64,000 nt of DNA. Source: Escherichia phage ECO111 5-P. Position numbers and translations under genes: made by a program. Each line of letters begins with the position of its first letter. Within the stretch, counting starts at the first letter, position 1. The stretch lies in the sequence record OR844765. One strand, given 5' to 3'. The notes below the pieces were generated by a model, which saw only the letters and a program-made list of their open reading frames with translations, was not told the DNA's origin and made no database searches. This document shows, piece by piece, positions 45,013 to 58,494 of this stretch.

Positions 45013-45324
45013 ATGAAAACTTATCAAGAGTTTATCGCTGAAGCTACTAAACCCGATAAAAATTTTGTTATTAACACTAACGGCCCGTTAGATGATGAAT
45101 ACGCTAATGCTATTATTAAGTCAATTTCTAATCAAGGCGTTGAAGTATCAAATTTCGAATATAAGAAAAATGATACTTATATGGTAATTAGTATCAAAAA
45201 AGGTTCAAAAGCCAAAATTAAATCTGCATTTGGTGTTATGCGAGCCGACCAAATCGATAACCACGATTTTTCACAAACTGGGGTCAAACGCCAGAATACT
45301 ATTTCATCTAAAGGCATAAAATAG
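45013..45324 (+). CDS. Internal protein (Ip) with capsid targeting sequence
   Basis: From Met at MKTYQEFIAEATK…: canonical T4 CTS ending in I-A-E (gp21 cleavage motif L/I-x-E); adjacent to 57B where T4 carries ipI; track ORF has GTG-extended N-terminus. Confidence 0.7.
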   Translation: MKTYQEFIAEATKPDKNFVINTNGPLDDEYANAIIKSISNQGVEVSNFEYKKNDTYMVISIKKGSKAKIKSAFGVMRADQIDNHDFSQTGVKRQNTISSKGIK

Positions 45325-45360
45325 TTTACATCATGGTAGGACTATGTTATAGTAGTCCTA
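45324..45360 (+). repeat. PeSL-like element: early promoter -35 GTTTAC plus 24-bp perfect dyad TAGGACTATGTTATAGTAGTCCTA
   Basis: Copy 1 of a dyad repeated 4 times in the window (also ~45665, ~52070, ~54011); -10 TATAGT lies in the right arm. Confidence 0.6.
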
Positions 45361-45385
45361 TCAAAACAACCAAATGGAACCTAAA

Positions 45386-45649
45386 ATGAAAACTTTCAAC
45401 GAATTCATCTCAGAATCGTCTGGTGTGAAAATTAACAAAGCGGTCAATCAGGTTATTGCTGATATTCTTAATTTGTATAACATTGACTTAACTCCGCATA
45501 TCACGCTTGGTAACAAACGAAACTTTTTCATATTTGACACATCCGAACTTGATGAAAATCAGTTCAATAACATTCAACGTTTTGCGAATGATAAAGGTCT
45601 TCGACACGAGCCTGGTGGCTATAAAAAATACGCAATATATTTGAAATAA
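45386..45649 (+). CDS. Internal-protein-like protein with variant CTS
   Basis: MKTFNEFISES… resembles the CTS consensus; 88 aa from this Met; upstream ATG at 45374 also possible. Confidence 0.55.
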   Translation: MKTFNEFISESSGVKINKAVNQVIADILNLYNIDLTPHITLGNKRNFFIFDTSELDENQFNNIQRFANDKGLRHEPGGYKKYAIYLK

Positions 45650-45664
45650 AGATATACAAGCCTA

Positions 45665-45688
45665 TAGGACTATGTTATAGTAGTCCTA
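45665..45688 (+). repeat. PeSL-like dyad TAGGACTATGTTATAGTAGTCCTA (copy 2)
   Basis: Exact repeat of the 24-bp dyad; upstream -35 is degenerate (ATACAA). Confidence 0.55.
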
Positions 45689-45718
45689 TCAAAACAAATG
45701 AGTAAATGGAGAAATAAA

Positions 45719-45904
45719 ATGAAACGCGCTGAACTGATTCGTAATGTTGCTGTAGTAATTGCTTCAATGGCTTTTAGTTTTTCGATGTTTGTAGGATTCA
45801 TTTGCGGACTACTGACAACAACTGAAAATTCTATCTCATTGGTAGTAGCATTTCTAATCGGTTTAATCGCTATTGTTATGGATAAAATTGCAAAAGGTGA
45901 GTAA
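45719..45904 (+). CDS. Small membrane protein (2 predicted TM helices)
   Basis: 61 aa from ATG with GGAG RBS; hydrophobic stretches VAVVIASMAFSFSMFVGFICGLL and LVVAFLIGLIAIVM. Confidence 0.5.
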   Translation: MKRAELIRNVAVVIASMAFSFSMFVGFICGLLTTTENSISLVVAFLIGLIAIVMDKIAKGE

Positions 45905-45905
45905 A

Positions 45906-46268
45906 ATGAAATATCACGTATATGCGGATTTTGAAGCAAATCCTTCTAAAGACCCTTATTGTCGTTTGATACGCAGACCATTTGATTCAGCAGCTCAAGC
46001 ATGGGCTTGGATTAAAACTTGTACTCCTTCTTACACTTTCTTTGAAGTGGTAGACGATAACGGTGTTCTGCATCCAGAACCTACAGAAACTATTAATTTC
46101 CTTCTGTTTGCTGGTTACGACTGTTATCCTCTTGGCGGTATTGATGATCTTGTTGCTACAGGAAAAACTGTTGAAGCTCTTCGTGAAATTTATAAAAACG
46201 CGGAAGAAAATTTTGACTGGTATCATATTGTTGATGCTCATACCTTTGAAATGGTGGAACATTCATGA
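45906..46268 (+). CDS. Hypothetical protein
   Basis: 120 aa from MKYHVYADF…; first of three tightly coupled ORFs. Confidence 0.5.
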   Translation: MKYHVYADFEANPSKDPYCRLIRRPFDSAAQAWAWIKTCTPSYTFFEVVDDNGVLHPEPTETINFLLFAGYDCYPLGGIDDLVATGKTVEALREIYKNAEENFDWYHIVDAHTFEMVEHS

Positions 46269-46555
46269 TTCTTTATGCTAAAGTAAAATCTGTCGAGAAT
46301 GGATATGAAAGCGACCAACGAGCAGCTAAAGCATTAGTTGATGACTATGGTATTTTGACTAATTTTGAAGTTGAAAAGGTTTATATCGACCGTTCATCTT
46401 CACAGGTTAAATTACTCTGTGAAGATGATAAATTTAACACAGTTAACTTTGATTTCTTTATTGAAACAGAAAAAGGCCCTCTCGAATATGATATTTTCAA
46501 GAATCCTTTGAAATTACGTTGCATTGAATATAATTACATTAATATGGTACGGTGA
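46265..46555 (+). CDS. Hypothetical protein
   Basis: 96 aa; ATGA overlap with upstream ORF. Confidence 0.5.
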   Translation: MILYAKVKSVENGYESDQRAAKALVDDYGILTNFEVEKVYIDRSSSQVKLLCEDDKFNTVNFDFFIETEKGPLEYDIFKNPLKLRCIEYNYINMVR

Positions 46556-46559
46556 GTAA

Positions 46560-47075
46560 ATGAATATTTGTTTAGGCAGTACAATTCCTAAGGGTTACGT
46601 AATTGATGTCACTACTTCGGAAAATGACGGTGATAACTATAAAACTAAAACGTTGTTTGGTGTAGAAGAGCATGAGCTCCAACAGTTTAAATATCTCTTG
46701 AAGAAATTTAAGAGTCGTCATTCTAGCACTAAAGCTGAACGTTACTGTGGTAATACACCATTCAGTGATTGCTCGCTTTTAATCTATGAATACTTGGTTG
46801 AAGGACTGTTCTCAGACCAGCTTTATCCAGAATTCATTAAAAAGGTCTTTGATATTGAAGTTGACCTTGGCGATAAATCTGAAGAAGACGAATCACGTGT
46901 ATTTGACCTGTTCTTTGTGAAAGGTGATGAGGTATCCAAAGGCCTTATTGATATTCTTGGCTATGCTTCTGAATACTACGACTATGATTTCTTGCGTGTA
47001 GTTGAATGTGTTGAATTTGCTTATATTGAAGAAGAAATCGTTTTGCCAACTGTTAAAATGATTGATTTGCTTTAA
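46560..47075 (+). CDS. Hypothetical acidic protein
   Basis: 171 aa; 4-nt gap from upstream ORF. Confidence 0.5.
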   Translation: MNICLGSTIPKGYVIDVTTSENDGDNYKTKTLFGVEEHELQQFKYLLKKFKSRHSSTKAERYCGNTPFSDCSLLIYEYLVEGLFSDQLYPEFIKKVFDIEVDLGDKSEEDESRVFDLFFVKGDEVSKGLIDILGYASEYYDYDFLRVVECVEFAYIEEEIVLPTVKMIDLL

Positions 47076-57022: not shown

Positions 57023-57023
57023 T

Positions 57024-57052
57024 GTTTACTTCCTCCAAGGGTTTTGATATTA
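57024..57052 (+). promoter_or_regulatory. T4 early-type promoter upstream of denV
   Basis: GTTTAC, ~17 nt, TATTAT; approximate. Confidence 0.45.
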
Positions 57053-57080
57053 TACATTCATCAACTACTTGGAGGAAATT

Positions 57081-57494
57081 ATGACCCGTATCAATTTAAC
57101 ACTTGTTTCTGAACTGACTGACCAACATCTTATGGCGGAGTATCGTGAATTACCACGCGTATTTGGTGTAGTCCGTAAACATGTTCAAAACGGTAAACGT
57201 GTAAAGGATTTTAAAATCTCTCCAACATTTATTTTAGGCACAGGTCACGTAACATTCTTTTACGACAAACTCGAATTTTTACGTTTACGTCAAATCGAGC
57301 TAATCACTGAATGCTTGAAACGTGGTTTCAAAATCAAGGACACGACTGTCCAGGATATTTCCGACATCCCTGCCGAATTTCGTAATAATTATGTCCCGTC
57401 CGAAGCGTCCATTGCGATAAGTCAAGCACGCTTAGATGAAAAAATTGCTCAACGTCCGACTTGGTACAAATACTATGGTAAATCAATTTACTAA
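57081..57494 (+). CDS. denV: Endonuclease V (pyrimidine dimer DNA glycosylase)
   Basis: From [29 protein letters not shown]… 137 aa, near-identical to recalled T4 DenV; track ORF starts at upstream TTG. Confidence 0.95.
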
Positions 57495-57500
57495 GGAAAA

Positions 57501-57761
57501 ATGAAAATGTATCAAGAATTTATCGCTGAAGCAGATGCCAAAGGTCCTAAATTTAAAGTTAAAGCTTTCATTGGTGATGCGGAAGACTTTGGCTCATTAA
57601 AACGTAATGGGTATTTTTTCTTAGGTGGCGATGGTAAAGAAATCAACACCTATGCAAAACGTAGTGAAATTGCTTATGTTGTAGCAAGTCCTAAAGTAGA
57701 TGTTGACGATATTGGATACGATTTTAACAACTTCGGAATTATTTCTGGCGGTAAAGCTTAA
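57501..57761 (+). CDS. Internal protein (Ip) with CTS
   Basis: MKMYQEFIAEA…; 86 aa. Confidence 0.65.
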   Translation: MKMYQEFIAEADAKGPKFKVKAFIGDAEDFGSLKRNGYFFLGGDGKEINTYAKRSEIAYVVASPKVDVDDIGYDFNNFGIISGGKA

Positions 57762-57773
57762 ATTGTTTACGCT

Positions 57774-57805
57774 TAAGTATTAATATGGTATAATTACTCT
57801 ATCAA
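57774..57805 (+). promoter_or_regulatory. T4 early-type promoter
   Basis: GTTTAC, ~20 nt, TATAAT, then leader …CTATCAAAACAAACAAGGAAAC; approximate. Confidence 0.45.
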
Positions 57806-57824
57806 AACAAACAAGGAAACAAAA

Positions 57825-58139
57825 ATGAAAACGTATAAAGAATTTATTGCAGAATCCGCCAACCAACGCGTTGAAGGTGGTTATATTTGGATTGAACAAG
57901 TTGAGCCACCGAGCCGCACTTCTACAGGTAAATGGAAAATTACTGTTGACGGTCCTGGTGGTAAACGTAGGACTCTTAAAGAAATTAATGGGTACTATGA
58001 AGAAGCTCTTTCGGATGCAGGAACTTACATGATGCAAATCATGATTAAAAACCCTGAAAACCGTTTTGCAGCTAAAGTCTTCCGTCGTATTGGTAATAAA
58101 CTTTATGATGCATACTCTAAAAACTTCCCTAAAGAATAA
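57825..58139 (+). CDS. Internal protein (Ip) with CTS
   Basis: MKTYKEFIAES…; 104 aa. Confidence 0.65.
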   Translation: MKTYKEFIAESANQRVEGGYIWIEQVEPPSRTSTGKWKITVDGPGGKRRTLKEINGYYEEALSDAGTYMMQIMIKNPENRFAAKVFRRIGNKLYDAYSKNFPKE

Positions 58140-58164
58140 CATAAATTAAAACAATAGGAACAAA

Positions 58165-58494
58165 ATGAAAACATATCAGGAGTTTATCACTGAAGTTACA
58201 TTATCTGCGGAACAGAAAGCTGCTATCGAAGAAGGTAAAAATCCCAAAGTAACATACAAAGTAAATAGTAAAGGCGTTTTTGATGGCTTGGTTCAAGACC
58301 CTGAATTGAAAAAAGCTCTTTCTAAAACTAATGCGTACTTTGCTCCTAAATTTAACACAGCCGGTGTACTTATTGGATTGGATGTATTCAACTCTAAAGG
58401 TGTTCTATCTAATGCCTTTGGTTATGCCGCTAACAAAATTACCAAAGCCGCATGGGAATCCAATACCAAACAAGCTCAAAAGCCTAGAGTATAA
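58165..58494 (+). CDS. Internal protein (Ip) with CTS
   Basis: MKTYQEFITEV…; 109 aa. Confidence 0.65.
   Translation: MKTYQEFITEVTLSAEQKAAIEEGKNPKVTYKVNSKGVFDGLVQDPELKKALSKTNAYFAPKFNTAGVLIGLDVFNSKGVLSNAFGYAANKITKAAWESNTKQAQKPRV

Follow-up and report, generated by a model that had tools for sequence, protein, structure and literature searches.

Six T-even internal-protein genes with unrelated cargo domains in Escherichia phage ECO111 5-P are candidates for injected anti-restriction factors

Introduction

[quoted passage not shown] Internal proteins are at work from the very start of infection, ahead of any phage gene expression, and therefore help to determine the range of wild strains open to a therapeutic T-even phage. 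A first-pass annotation of this DNA held that only IPI has a defined role, a view now outdated: each of the T4 proteins Ip1, Ip2, and Ip3 is a specific inhibitor of its own GmrSD type IV restriction enzyme (Silas 2025; PMC12373910), and IPIII is required for T4 infection of ECOR17 (PMC9391042). More than 30 IP variants have been described at the two IP loci of these phages, flanked by promoter/stem-loop cassettes, and a defensive role has been proposed for them. Here, we analyze the six genes in the window, by which we mean the whole 64-kb stretch of DNA that was studied, from an RB69-like Mosigvirus (a T-even phage).

Results

All six ORFs lie on the plus strand with the T4-type targeting sequence at their start, and they form two clusters, as the first-pass annotation had claimed. 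By synteny with RB69 and T4, these clusters are the two IP loci, namely, locus 1 (57B–trna.4), with two of the genes, and locus 2 (e–denV–vs.8), with four genes between e and vs.8 and denV within these four; each of the six is thus either 57B adjacent or in the e/denV region, where T-even internal proteins are located. T4 itself carries ipI at the first of these positions and ipII/ipIII at the second. The genes and their neighbors are as follows.

44479 to 44934, plus strand: gene 57B, Acb1 anti-CBASS phosphodiesterase (Pfam PF23474 Acb1, 6.5e-59), syntenic with T4 57B, directly upstream of IP locus 1
45013 to 45324, plus strand: internal-protein gene, Ip7 family, first of IP locus 1; 103 aa, starts MKTYQEFIAE; predicted mature form 93 aa, pI 9.5
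45386 to 45649, plus strand: internal-protein gene, Ip9 family; 87 aa, starts MKTFNEFISE; predicted mature form 77 aa, pI 9.0
56256 to 56744, plus strand: lysozyme gene e, translation starts MNIFEMLR, syntenic with RB69 and T4; left border of IP locus 2
56741 to 57022, plus strand: internal-protein gene; 93 aa; predicted mature form 83 aa or less, pI 6.3
57081 to 57494, plus strand: denV (endonuclease V), translation starts MTRINLTLV, annotated as denV in RB69 and T4; inside IP locus 2 in this genus
57501 to 57761, plus strand: internal-protein gene; 86 aa, starts MKMYQEFIAE; predicted mature form 76 aa, pI 6.4
57825 to 58139, plus strand: internal-protein gene, Ip10 family; 104 aa, starts MKTYKEFIAE; predicted mature form 94 aa, pI 9.6
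58165 to 58494, plus strand: gene with targeting sequence, least annotated of the six; 109 aa, starts MKTYQEFITE; predicted mature form 99 aa, pI 9.7

The position of the anti-CBASS gene 57B/Acb1 beside locus 1 was counted in favor of an anti-defense role. The 56741 gene has an ATG overlapping the stop codon of e (ATGA), and the 57501 gene begins 6 nt past denV.

The common N terminus of the six ORFs reads MK[T/M][Y/F]x-E-F-[I/L]-x-E. The pattern MK[TM][YF]x[EN]F[IL]xE had exactly six matches in the six-frame translation of the window, one at the N terminus of each of these ORFs; 200 shuffles gave 0.0 matches on average. Experiments with the IPIII targeting sequence showed that positions 4 and 7 govern targeting and positions 8 and 10 govern processing (PMC9026906); Y/F4, F7, I/L8, and E10 are kept in all six ORFs, and residues 8 to 10, the gp21 motif (L/I)-x-E, read IAE, ISE, LSE, IAE, IAE, and ITE in gene order. 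In the 56741 protein, L-x-E occurs once more, with its Glu at residue 15. Pairwise comparison of the six genes gave 29 synonymous and 38 nonsynonymous codon differences in codons 1 to 10 versus 9 and 139 in codons 11 to 20; the targeting peptide is therefore kept by selection and not through recent DNA copying. Synonymous and nonsynonymous counts against RB69 and 348Ecol098PP were too small to inform on diversifying selection. In the program-made ORF list, three of the six ORFs begin farther upstream, at GTG, ATG, or TTG; in these, translation probably starts at the MKT... ATG, since this codon is preceded by a GGAA Shine-Dalgarno-like motif and the 45386 leader aligns with the 45013 leader.

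Beyond the targeting sequence, the six proteins part company. BLASTP and tblastn similarity to the T4 IPs stops after about 11 residues, and hhalign profile-profile comparison of the mature parts, with one another and with T4 IPI, IPII, and IPIII, gave probabilities below 2% in all 36 pairs (1.8% or less against the T4 proteins). The genes are thus not orthologs of the T4 IPs, and the extra, diverged members that the first-pass annotation had seen are indeed present. PHROG places the 45013 and 57501 proteins together in 2667 and the 57825 and 58165 proteins in 3966, which might suggest shared ancestry of the cargos; we rejected this, as no pair matches in profile-profile comparison without the first 10 residues, and the targeting sequence probably accounts for the shared PHROG assignments. 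The predicted mature sizes (76 to 99 aa) compare with 76 aa for IPI* and 90 aa for IPII*; four of the six predicted mature proteins are basic (pI 9.0 to 9.7), whereas two are near neutral (pI 6.3 and 6.4), unlike the basic T4 IPs. Two AF2 models gave compact alpha/beta domains; in that of the 45013 protein (mean pLDDT 69), the core is ferredoxin-like and the tail, basic and rich in lysine and arginine, is disordered. Fold searches returned generic ferredoxin-like matches only, with no functional clue, and sequence-only searches of Pfam, NCBIfam, and PDB returned nothing significant.

The Ip9 cargo domain has a wider distribution. In Seuratvirus and Kagunavirus-size siphophages it forms a gene by itself that lacks the targeting sequence, and a 972-aa Ackermannviridae protein carries it, likewise with no targeting sequence, at its C terminus. 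None of these phages is known to have glycosylated hydroxymethylcytosine (hmC) DNA. A kinship of the Ip9-type protein with 2H phosphoesterases, suggested by the resemblance of its 'TPHITLG' to 'TPHITLS' of the adjoining Acb1/57B, was rejected, because the family, which mostly has 'DYITVG' here, does not conserve the His and there is no Pfam match.

All six genes are present in phage 348Ecol098PP at 93 to 100% identity (100% for 57825), and RB69, whose sequence dates from 2003, has an ORF in each of the six positions (ORF156c, ipI, ORF127c, ORF125c, ORF124c, and ORF123c), five of them 91 to 98% identical. The 45013 gene is 97% identical to ORF156c and 64 to 70% identical, over its full length, to proteins named Ip7; it matches PHROG 2667 'internal head protein' (3.9e-39), and its mature part was found by tblastn in 160 phage records, the family being called Ip7 in RB32. 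The 45386 gene, which occupies the slot that holds ipI in RB69 and T4, shows full-length similarity to Ip9 of RB15 and IME08 (71 to 78% identity). In locus 2, the 56741 gene (91% identical to ORF127c) matches PHROG 3499 'internal head protein' (2.1e-46) and has 496 phage records, and the 57501 gene (94% to ORF125c) has 214, some labeled 'internal head protein'. The 57825 gene is 98% identical to ORF124c over 84 aa and 71 to 72% identical, again over its full length, to ip10/Ip10 of VR20 and SP18. The 58165 gene (98% to ORF123c) has 90 phage records, and among the matches listed all are 'hypothetical' save one 32% match; no Ip name for this family occurs among the database records listed. An exhaustive HMMER search gave it a single true distant relative, of 119 aa and also starting MKTYQQFITE; the other matches were very long proteins that look compositional and were set aside.

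Across the six genes, tblastn found 90 to 496 phage records per gene, and the number of records with a copy of at least 90% identity ranged from 26 for the two locus 1 genes up to 238 for the 56741 gene. Three RB69 copies carry lesions: in the deposited sequence, two compensating frameshifts destroy the targeting sequence of the 56741 ortholog, the 58165 ortholog has Ala for Glu at position 10, and the 57825 ortholog has a different C terminus. If the RB69 record is free of errors here, individual IP genes can therefore be damaged.

The implied novelty of the gene set did not hold. It is already known: RB69 has ORFs at the same positions, the families are named Ip7, Ip9, Ip10, or 'internal head protein' in databases, and diverse two-locus IPs have been proposed as anti-defense factors (PMC3012670; PMC2839356; PMC12373910). 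Petrov 2010 does not mention internal proteins, and a literature search on the names Ip7, Ip9, and Ip10 returned noise only.

Several of the genes are preceded by the following elements.

44949 to 44983, plus strand: T4-early-type promoter TTTACA-17-TACTAT, overlapped by a 12-bp stem-loop (44957 to 44983), upstream of the Ip7-family gene
45325 to 45369, plus strand: promoter/stem-loop cassette before the Ip9-family gene, with a TTTACA-17-TATAGT promoter-like site, a stem at 45334 to 45363, and the left 33-bp direct repeat (45337 to 45369)
45653 to 45697, plus strand: promoter/stem-loop cassette before trna.4, with the right copy of the 33-bp repeat (45665 to 45697)
57766 to 57794, plus strand: T4-early-type promoter TTTACG-17-TATAAT with an upstream TG, before the Ip10-family gene

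The leader that holds the Ip7-side stem (45012 back to 44945) has a predicted fold energy of -15.7 kcal/mol. The 56741, 57501, and 58165 genes have no promoter element of their own, and the late promoter motif TATAAATA was found directly upstream of none of the six genes; for the timing of their expression relative to head assembly, we infer from T4 only. An early promoter with a stem-loop is also found upstream of T4 ipI, ipII, and ipIII, and the elements in the window match those described at T-even IP loci (PMC2839356).

The two 33-bp repeats are 100% identical, and because the right copy sits in the cassette upstream of trna.4, the Ip9 gene is bracketed by them; its slot thus has a conserved early promoter and stem-loop on both sides of a variable gene, as in PeSLs. 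When the window was aligned with RB69, homology broke within the targeting-sequence codons and resumed at the downstream repeat element (45653 to 45697). The alignment indicates that in ECO111 5-P an Ip9-type cassette stands in place of the RB69 ipI gene, and that the IP gene set is reshuffled among phages as cassettes, with recombination apparently at the conserved promoter/stem-loop elements and the targeting-sequence codons.

Discussion

The six are T-even internal-protein genes with a targeting sequence, and our results suggest, with a probability of roughly 0.6, that their cargos are injected and each block one variant of host defense. Each gene product is an unrelated small domain of about 8 to 11 kDa joined to a common 10-residue N-terminal capsid targeting sequence. 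By analogy with T4, this sequence would bind the scaffolding core, so that the protein is built into the prohead, and the prohead protease gp21 would cleave after Glu10 at (I/L)-x-E, leaving a mature protein that remains with the packaged DNA and enters the host along with it. More speculatively, each protein may bind and block one variant of a first-line host defense once in the cell, the most likely targets being modification-dependent nucleases of type IV (GmrSD-type), by which the DNA of these phages, with its sugar-modified hydroxymethylcytosine, is cut. The literature searched contained no virion proteomics for the six proteins, one paper on an RB69-like phage giving only five major bands.

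An injected anti-restriction role is our best-supported guess. The authors of the Ip1 to Ip3 study extended this inhibitor role, as a proposal, to every protein encoded at the two Ip loci (PMC12373910), and the arabinosyl-hmC DNA of RB69 is cut by GmrSD enzymes, a restriction that RB69 IPI prevents (PMC6024577).

The proteins might instead be packaged and injected but act on targets other than GmrSD, such as BREX, other modification-dependent nucleases, or abortive-infection sensors, or they might serve in host takeover. Ten ip genes from outside T4 failed to inhibit five further GmrSD systems (PMC12373910), six cargos unrelated in sequence allow unrelated targets, and the Ip9 cargo domain occurs without a targeting sequence in the siphophages and Ackermannviridae noted above. 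We nevertheless regard this explanation as rather unlikely for the set: every T-even IP with a known target (Ip1, Ip2, and Ip3) acts on a GmrSD enzyme, and because GmrSD enzymes are extremely diverse, negative results on five systems say little. A narrower proposal, which we make tentatively and with the odds somewhat against it, is that one or more of the six proteins, once injected, neutralize a non-GmrSD defense, for example, an arabinosyl-hmC-specific nuclease or a non-restriction immunity, and that the Ip9 cargo is a portable anti-defense module made injectable by an added targeting sequence.

A mainly structural function, in which small DNA-associated head proteins serve charge neutralization, DNA condensation, or ejection and have no specific host target, would suit the four basic mature proteins, the disordered lysine/arginine-rich tail of the Ip7 model, and the approximately 1,000 internal-protein molecules embedded in the DNA of T4 heads (PMC3012670). 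We consider it improbable, since it leaves unexplained the unrelated cargos, their uneven occupancy in close relatives (26 to 238 records), and the cassette swaps between near-identical genomes, and two of the six predicted mature proteins are not basic. In T4, deletion of IPIII causes a strain-specific defect that is complemented by host-expressed mature protein without the targeting sequence (PMC9391042). The RB69 lesions (if not sequence errors) might hint that genes among the six are decaying, or are remnants no longer packaged, with a targeting-like start that has lost its function. This is highly improbable, because the targeting sequence is intact and the ORF full length in every one of the six genes of the window, the ORFs being close to those of 348Ecol098PP, and because each gene is conserved in at least 90 phage records.

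Relative to what has been deposited and published, the window contains nothing new in gene families, architecture, or mechanism. The targets of the non-T4 internal proteins, these six included, would, once found, map the arms race with type IV restriction enzymes. One prediction follows from the exchange of ipI for an Ip9-type gene: unlike RB69, ECO111 5-P should be restricted by the CT596-type GmrS/GmrD enzyme, provided that none of its other IPs covers this target.

Among known systems, the Dar proteins of phage P1 are presumably unrelated to the six proteins, packaged by another route, and active against type I restriction. They resemble the IPs in being head-packaged, injected proteins that shield incoming DNA from restriction (PMC12810830). 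The locus 1 elements resemble PeSLs (2010; Comeau et al. 2014) in having an early promoter overlapped by a stem-loop on both sides of a variable gene, here with a 33-bp perfect repeat around the Ip9 cassette, whereas T-even IP-locus elements, with T4 early promoters and AT-rich stems, are analogues and not homologues of the RB49/phi1 PeSLs (PMC2839356). T4 IPI, IPII, and IPIII (Ip1 to Ip3) share with the six the N-terminal targeting sequence, the gp21 motif, the two loci, the promoter/stem-loop leaders, and a small predicted mature size; they differ in that their mature domains have no detectable similarity to those described here, in number (three in T4 versus six in the window), and in the position of denV, which lies at the locus edge in T4 and inside locus 2 in the window. 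The polymorphic T-even IPs of the Ip4 to Ip13 type (Repoila et al.; 2007; as cited in PMC2839356) occupy the same loci with the same proposed defensive role, the 45013, 45386, and 57825 genes corresponding to Ip7, Ip9, and Ip10; the Mosigvirus versions are 64 to 78% identical to the named Tequatrovirus, Dhakavirus, or Karamvirus-type members. RB69 itself differs at slot 2, which holds a true IPI ortholog there and an Ip9-type gene in ECO111 5-P and 348Ecol098PP.

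Results

The window phage belongs to the RB69 group of T-even phages (Mosigvirus). A database sequence search with window positions 44900-58700 matched 1057 phage records; the best were those of Escherichia phage 348Ecol098PP, 96.8% identical across 90% of the query, and RB69, 96.5% identical across 85%. Gene order agrees with that of T4 and RB69: gene 1, 57A, and 57B are followed by the ORFs at 45013 and 45386, trna.4-trna.2, tRNA-Met and tRNA-Arg, the e.x accessory genes, nudE, and e; after e comes a second ORF group, with denV inside it, and then vs.8. The first-pass annotation had proposed six internal protein (IP) genes, each beginning with a 10-residue capsid targeting sequence; translation of the window places all six exactly at its coordinates, the ORF at 58165 opening with MKTYQEFITE, and the observation of six targeting-sequence genes is confirmed.

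Internal protein genes of the window, by start position, with phage records matched (tblastn with the mature part, after residue 10), database names, and records holding copies at at least 90% identity (GenBank and RefSeq duplicates included)
45013, plus strand, IP locus 1 (57B–trna.4): 160 records; Ip7, internal head protein; 26 copies
45386, plus strand, IP locus 1: 181 records; Ip9, internal head protein; 26 copies
56741, plus strand, IP locus 2 (e–denV–vs.8): 496 records; internal head protein; about 238 copies
57501, plus strand, IP locus 2: 214 records; internal head protein; 164 copies
57825, plus strand, IP locus 2: 189 records; ip10/Ip10, internal head protein; 131 copies
58165, plus strand, IP locus 2: 90 records; hypothetical in nearly all of the matches listed; 76 copies

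We take the Ip numbers in these names to be those of the 1994 survey of IP loci; the UniRef entry "Ip9" is a phage RB15 protein (Q38376). Judged by sequence, the gene set is already known and not new: 348Ecol098PP has all six genes at 93-100% identity, and in RB69 all six positions are likewise occupied by ORFs (ORF156c, ipI, ORF127c, 125c, 124c, and 123c), five of them 91-98% identical to their window counterparts. The strong differences between slots in the number of near-identical copies show a combinatorial IP repertoire, with more variation at locus 1 than at locus 2.

The pattern MK[TM][YF]x[EN]F[IL]xE has six matches in the six-frame translation of the 64-kb window, each time at the start of one of the six ORFs, while 200 shuffled controls gave a mean of 0.0 matches. 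In pairwise comparisons among the six genes, codons 1-10 differ by 29 synonymous and 38 nonsynonymous changes, whereas codons 11-20 differ by 9 and 139; the ten targeting-sequence codons are more than plain DNA copies, and these counts show the targeting peptide to be under selection, with the remainder of each protein unrelated. Mutagenesis of T4 IPIII showed that positions 4 and 7 matter for targeting and positions 8 and 10 for processing (PMC9026906). The residues at these four positions are kept in all six window proteins, and in each the (L/I)-x-E motif of gp21, the prohead protease, closes the targeting sequence.

Similarity to T4 IPI, IPII, and IPIII ends after about 11 residues in every case (BLASTP, tblastn), and once the first ten residues were removed, all pairwise hhalign comparisons of the six families and the three T4 proteins stayed under 2% probability. 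The six therefore include no ortholog of these T4 proteins, which upholds their proposed status as additional members rather than close T4 orthologs. The predicted mature proteins have 76-99 residues; four are basic (pI 9.0-9.7) and two near neutral (6.3 and 6.4). Searches of Pfam, NCBIfam, and PDB sequences with the six returned no significant match.

The deposited RB69 copies of three genes (RB69 sequence L001, 12231-12512, 13315-13587, and 13656-13985, versus window 56741, 57825, and 58165) carry lesions. Two compensating frameshifts destroy the targeting sequence of ORF127c (MKTYMNFYQNLSLNE versus the intact counterpart in 56741), the cleavage-site Glu10 of ORF123c is replaced by Ala, and ORF124c has a shorter, different C terminus. 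These lesions reflect either real decay of individual internal protein genes or errors in the 2003 sequence.

A T4-early-type promoter, TTTAC(A/G)-17-TAnnnT, precedes three of the genes (45013, 45386, and 57825), as it does the flanking genes trna.4 and denV; it is overlapped by a strong stem-loop at the locus-1 and denV sites, and the fold 5' of 57825 is weak (-6.0 kcal/mol). T4 ipI, ipII, and ipIII have the same type of leader. No separate promoter precedes the other three genes: the ATG of 56741 runs into the stop codon of e (ATGA), 57501 follows denV at a distance of 6 nt, and 25 nt separate 57825 from the start of 58165. The Ip9-type gene at 45386, whose slot in RB69 holds a true ipI, lies between the two copies of a perfect 33-bp direct repeat (45337-45369 and 45665-45697). 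In the alignment with RB69, homology breaks within the targeting-sequence codons and resumes some 25 bp short of the downstream repeat. This layout is the one reported by Arbiol et al. (PMC2839356). Those authors, also citing Repoila et al., suggested that elements of the IP loci may confine IP shuffling to these two segments (PMC2839356).

Homologs of the mature part of the Ip9-type protein (45386-45649) that lack the targeting sequence occur in three contexts. Seuratvirus SHIN8 (sequence L004, 2492-2716) and KS_A3 carry the domain as a stand-alone 74-aa gene (44% identity); siphophages of 44-45 kb, two of them labeled Kagunavirus, encode homologs with 35-41% identity to the Seuratvirus protein; and in Ackermannviridae phage YX22 (sequence L006, 625-3543, minus strand) it makes up the last ~75 residues of a 972-aa protein that matches PHROG 7673 (9.4e-11) and has no assigned function. 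The Ip9 cargo thus seems to be a portable domain that T-even phages equipped with a packaging signal, and its occurrence without a targeting sequence supports the view that these phages attach that sequence to preexisting portable domains.

Several other genes were noted. Directly upstream of locus 1, 57B (44479-44934) matches Pfam Acb1, an anti-CBASS phosphodiesterase (6.5e-59), so that two kinds of counter-defense gene would lie side by side. The ORF at 47260-47886, with a T5orf172/MUG113 (GIY-YIG-related) domain, comes right after tRNA-Arg (47258-47334) with a nominal overlap; translation probably begins at the ATG near 47353, and the ORF may be a homing-endonuclease-like gene whose place in the tRNA region resembles that of T4 segB. 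Three consecutive small ORFs (51258-51563, 51573-51845, and 51855-52052; 101, 90, and 65 aa) share the C-terminal motif G-x-W-V-[S/A]-S-S-x-x-C and look like a tandem family in the accessory block; the families matched are PHROG 899 for the 101- and 90-aa ORFs and PHROG 4882 for the 65-aa ORF, neither with an assigned function. A 319-aa homolog of RB69 ORF134c (52383-53342; Pfam DUF7277, 3.7e-27, and DUF7275, 8.5e-77) is a conserved accessory-block protein without assigned function. Between it and the homolog of RB69 ORF133c lies a 218-aa ORF (53339-53995) matching PHROG 374, "HNH endonuclease" (1.9e-59), with a weak AP2-like C terminus; neither RB69 nor 348Ecol098PP has an annotated CDS at this position, and the ORF is probably a homing-endonuclease insertion.

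Discussion

By analogy with T4, each of the six proteins would be put onto the scaffolding core by its targeting sequence (PMC9026906, PMC3012670), which gp21 would then cut off, and the mature protein would enter the cell together with the DNA. [quoted passage not shown] In stating that a role is defined for IPI alone, the first-pass annotation is out of date. Its suggestion that the extra members are candidate antirestriction factors agrees with the published consensus and offers no new lead; apart from the outdated detail, the interpretation is essentially textbook and already known.

Given these precedents and that of RB69 IPI, we consider it most likely, with a probability of about 0.6 for the whole chain, that the six are injected and inhibit modification-dependent nucleases; in the main rival reading they are likewise injected but have other targets. 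GmrSD enzymes cut the arabinosyl-hmC-containing DNA of RB69, and RB69 IPI protects it (PMC6024577). No IPI-like sequence was found within the 64-kb window, so the sensitivity of this phage to the CT596-type enzyme is predicted to be unlike that of RB69.
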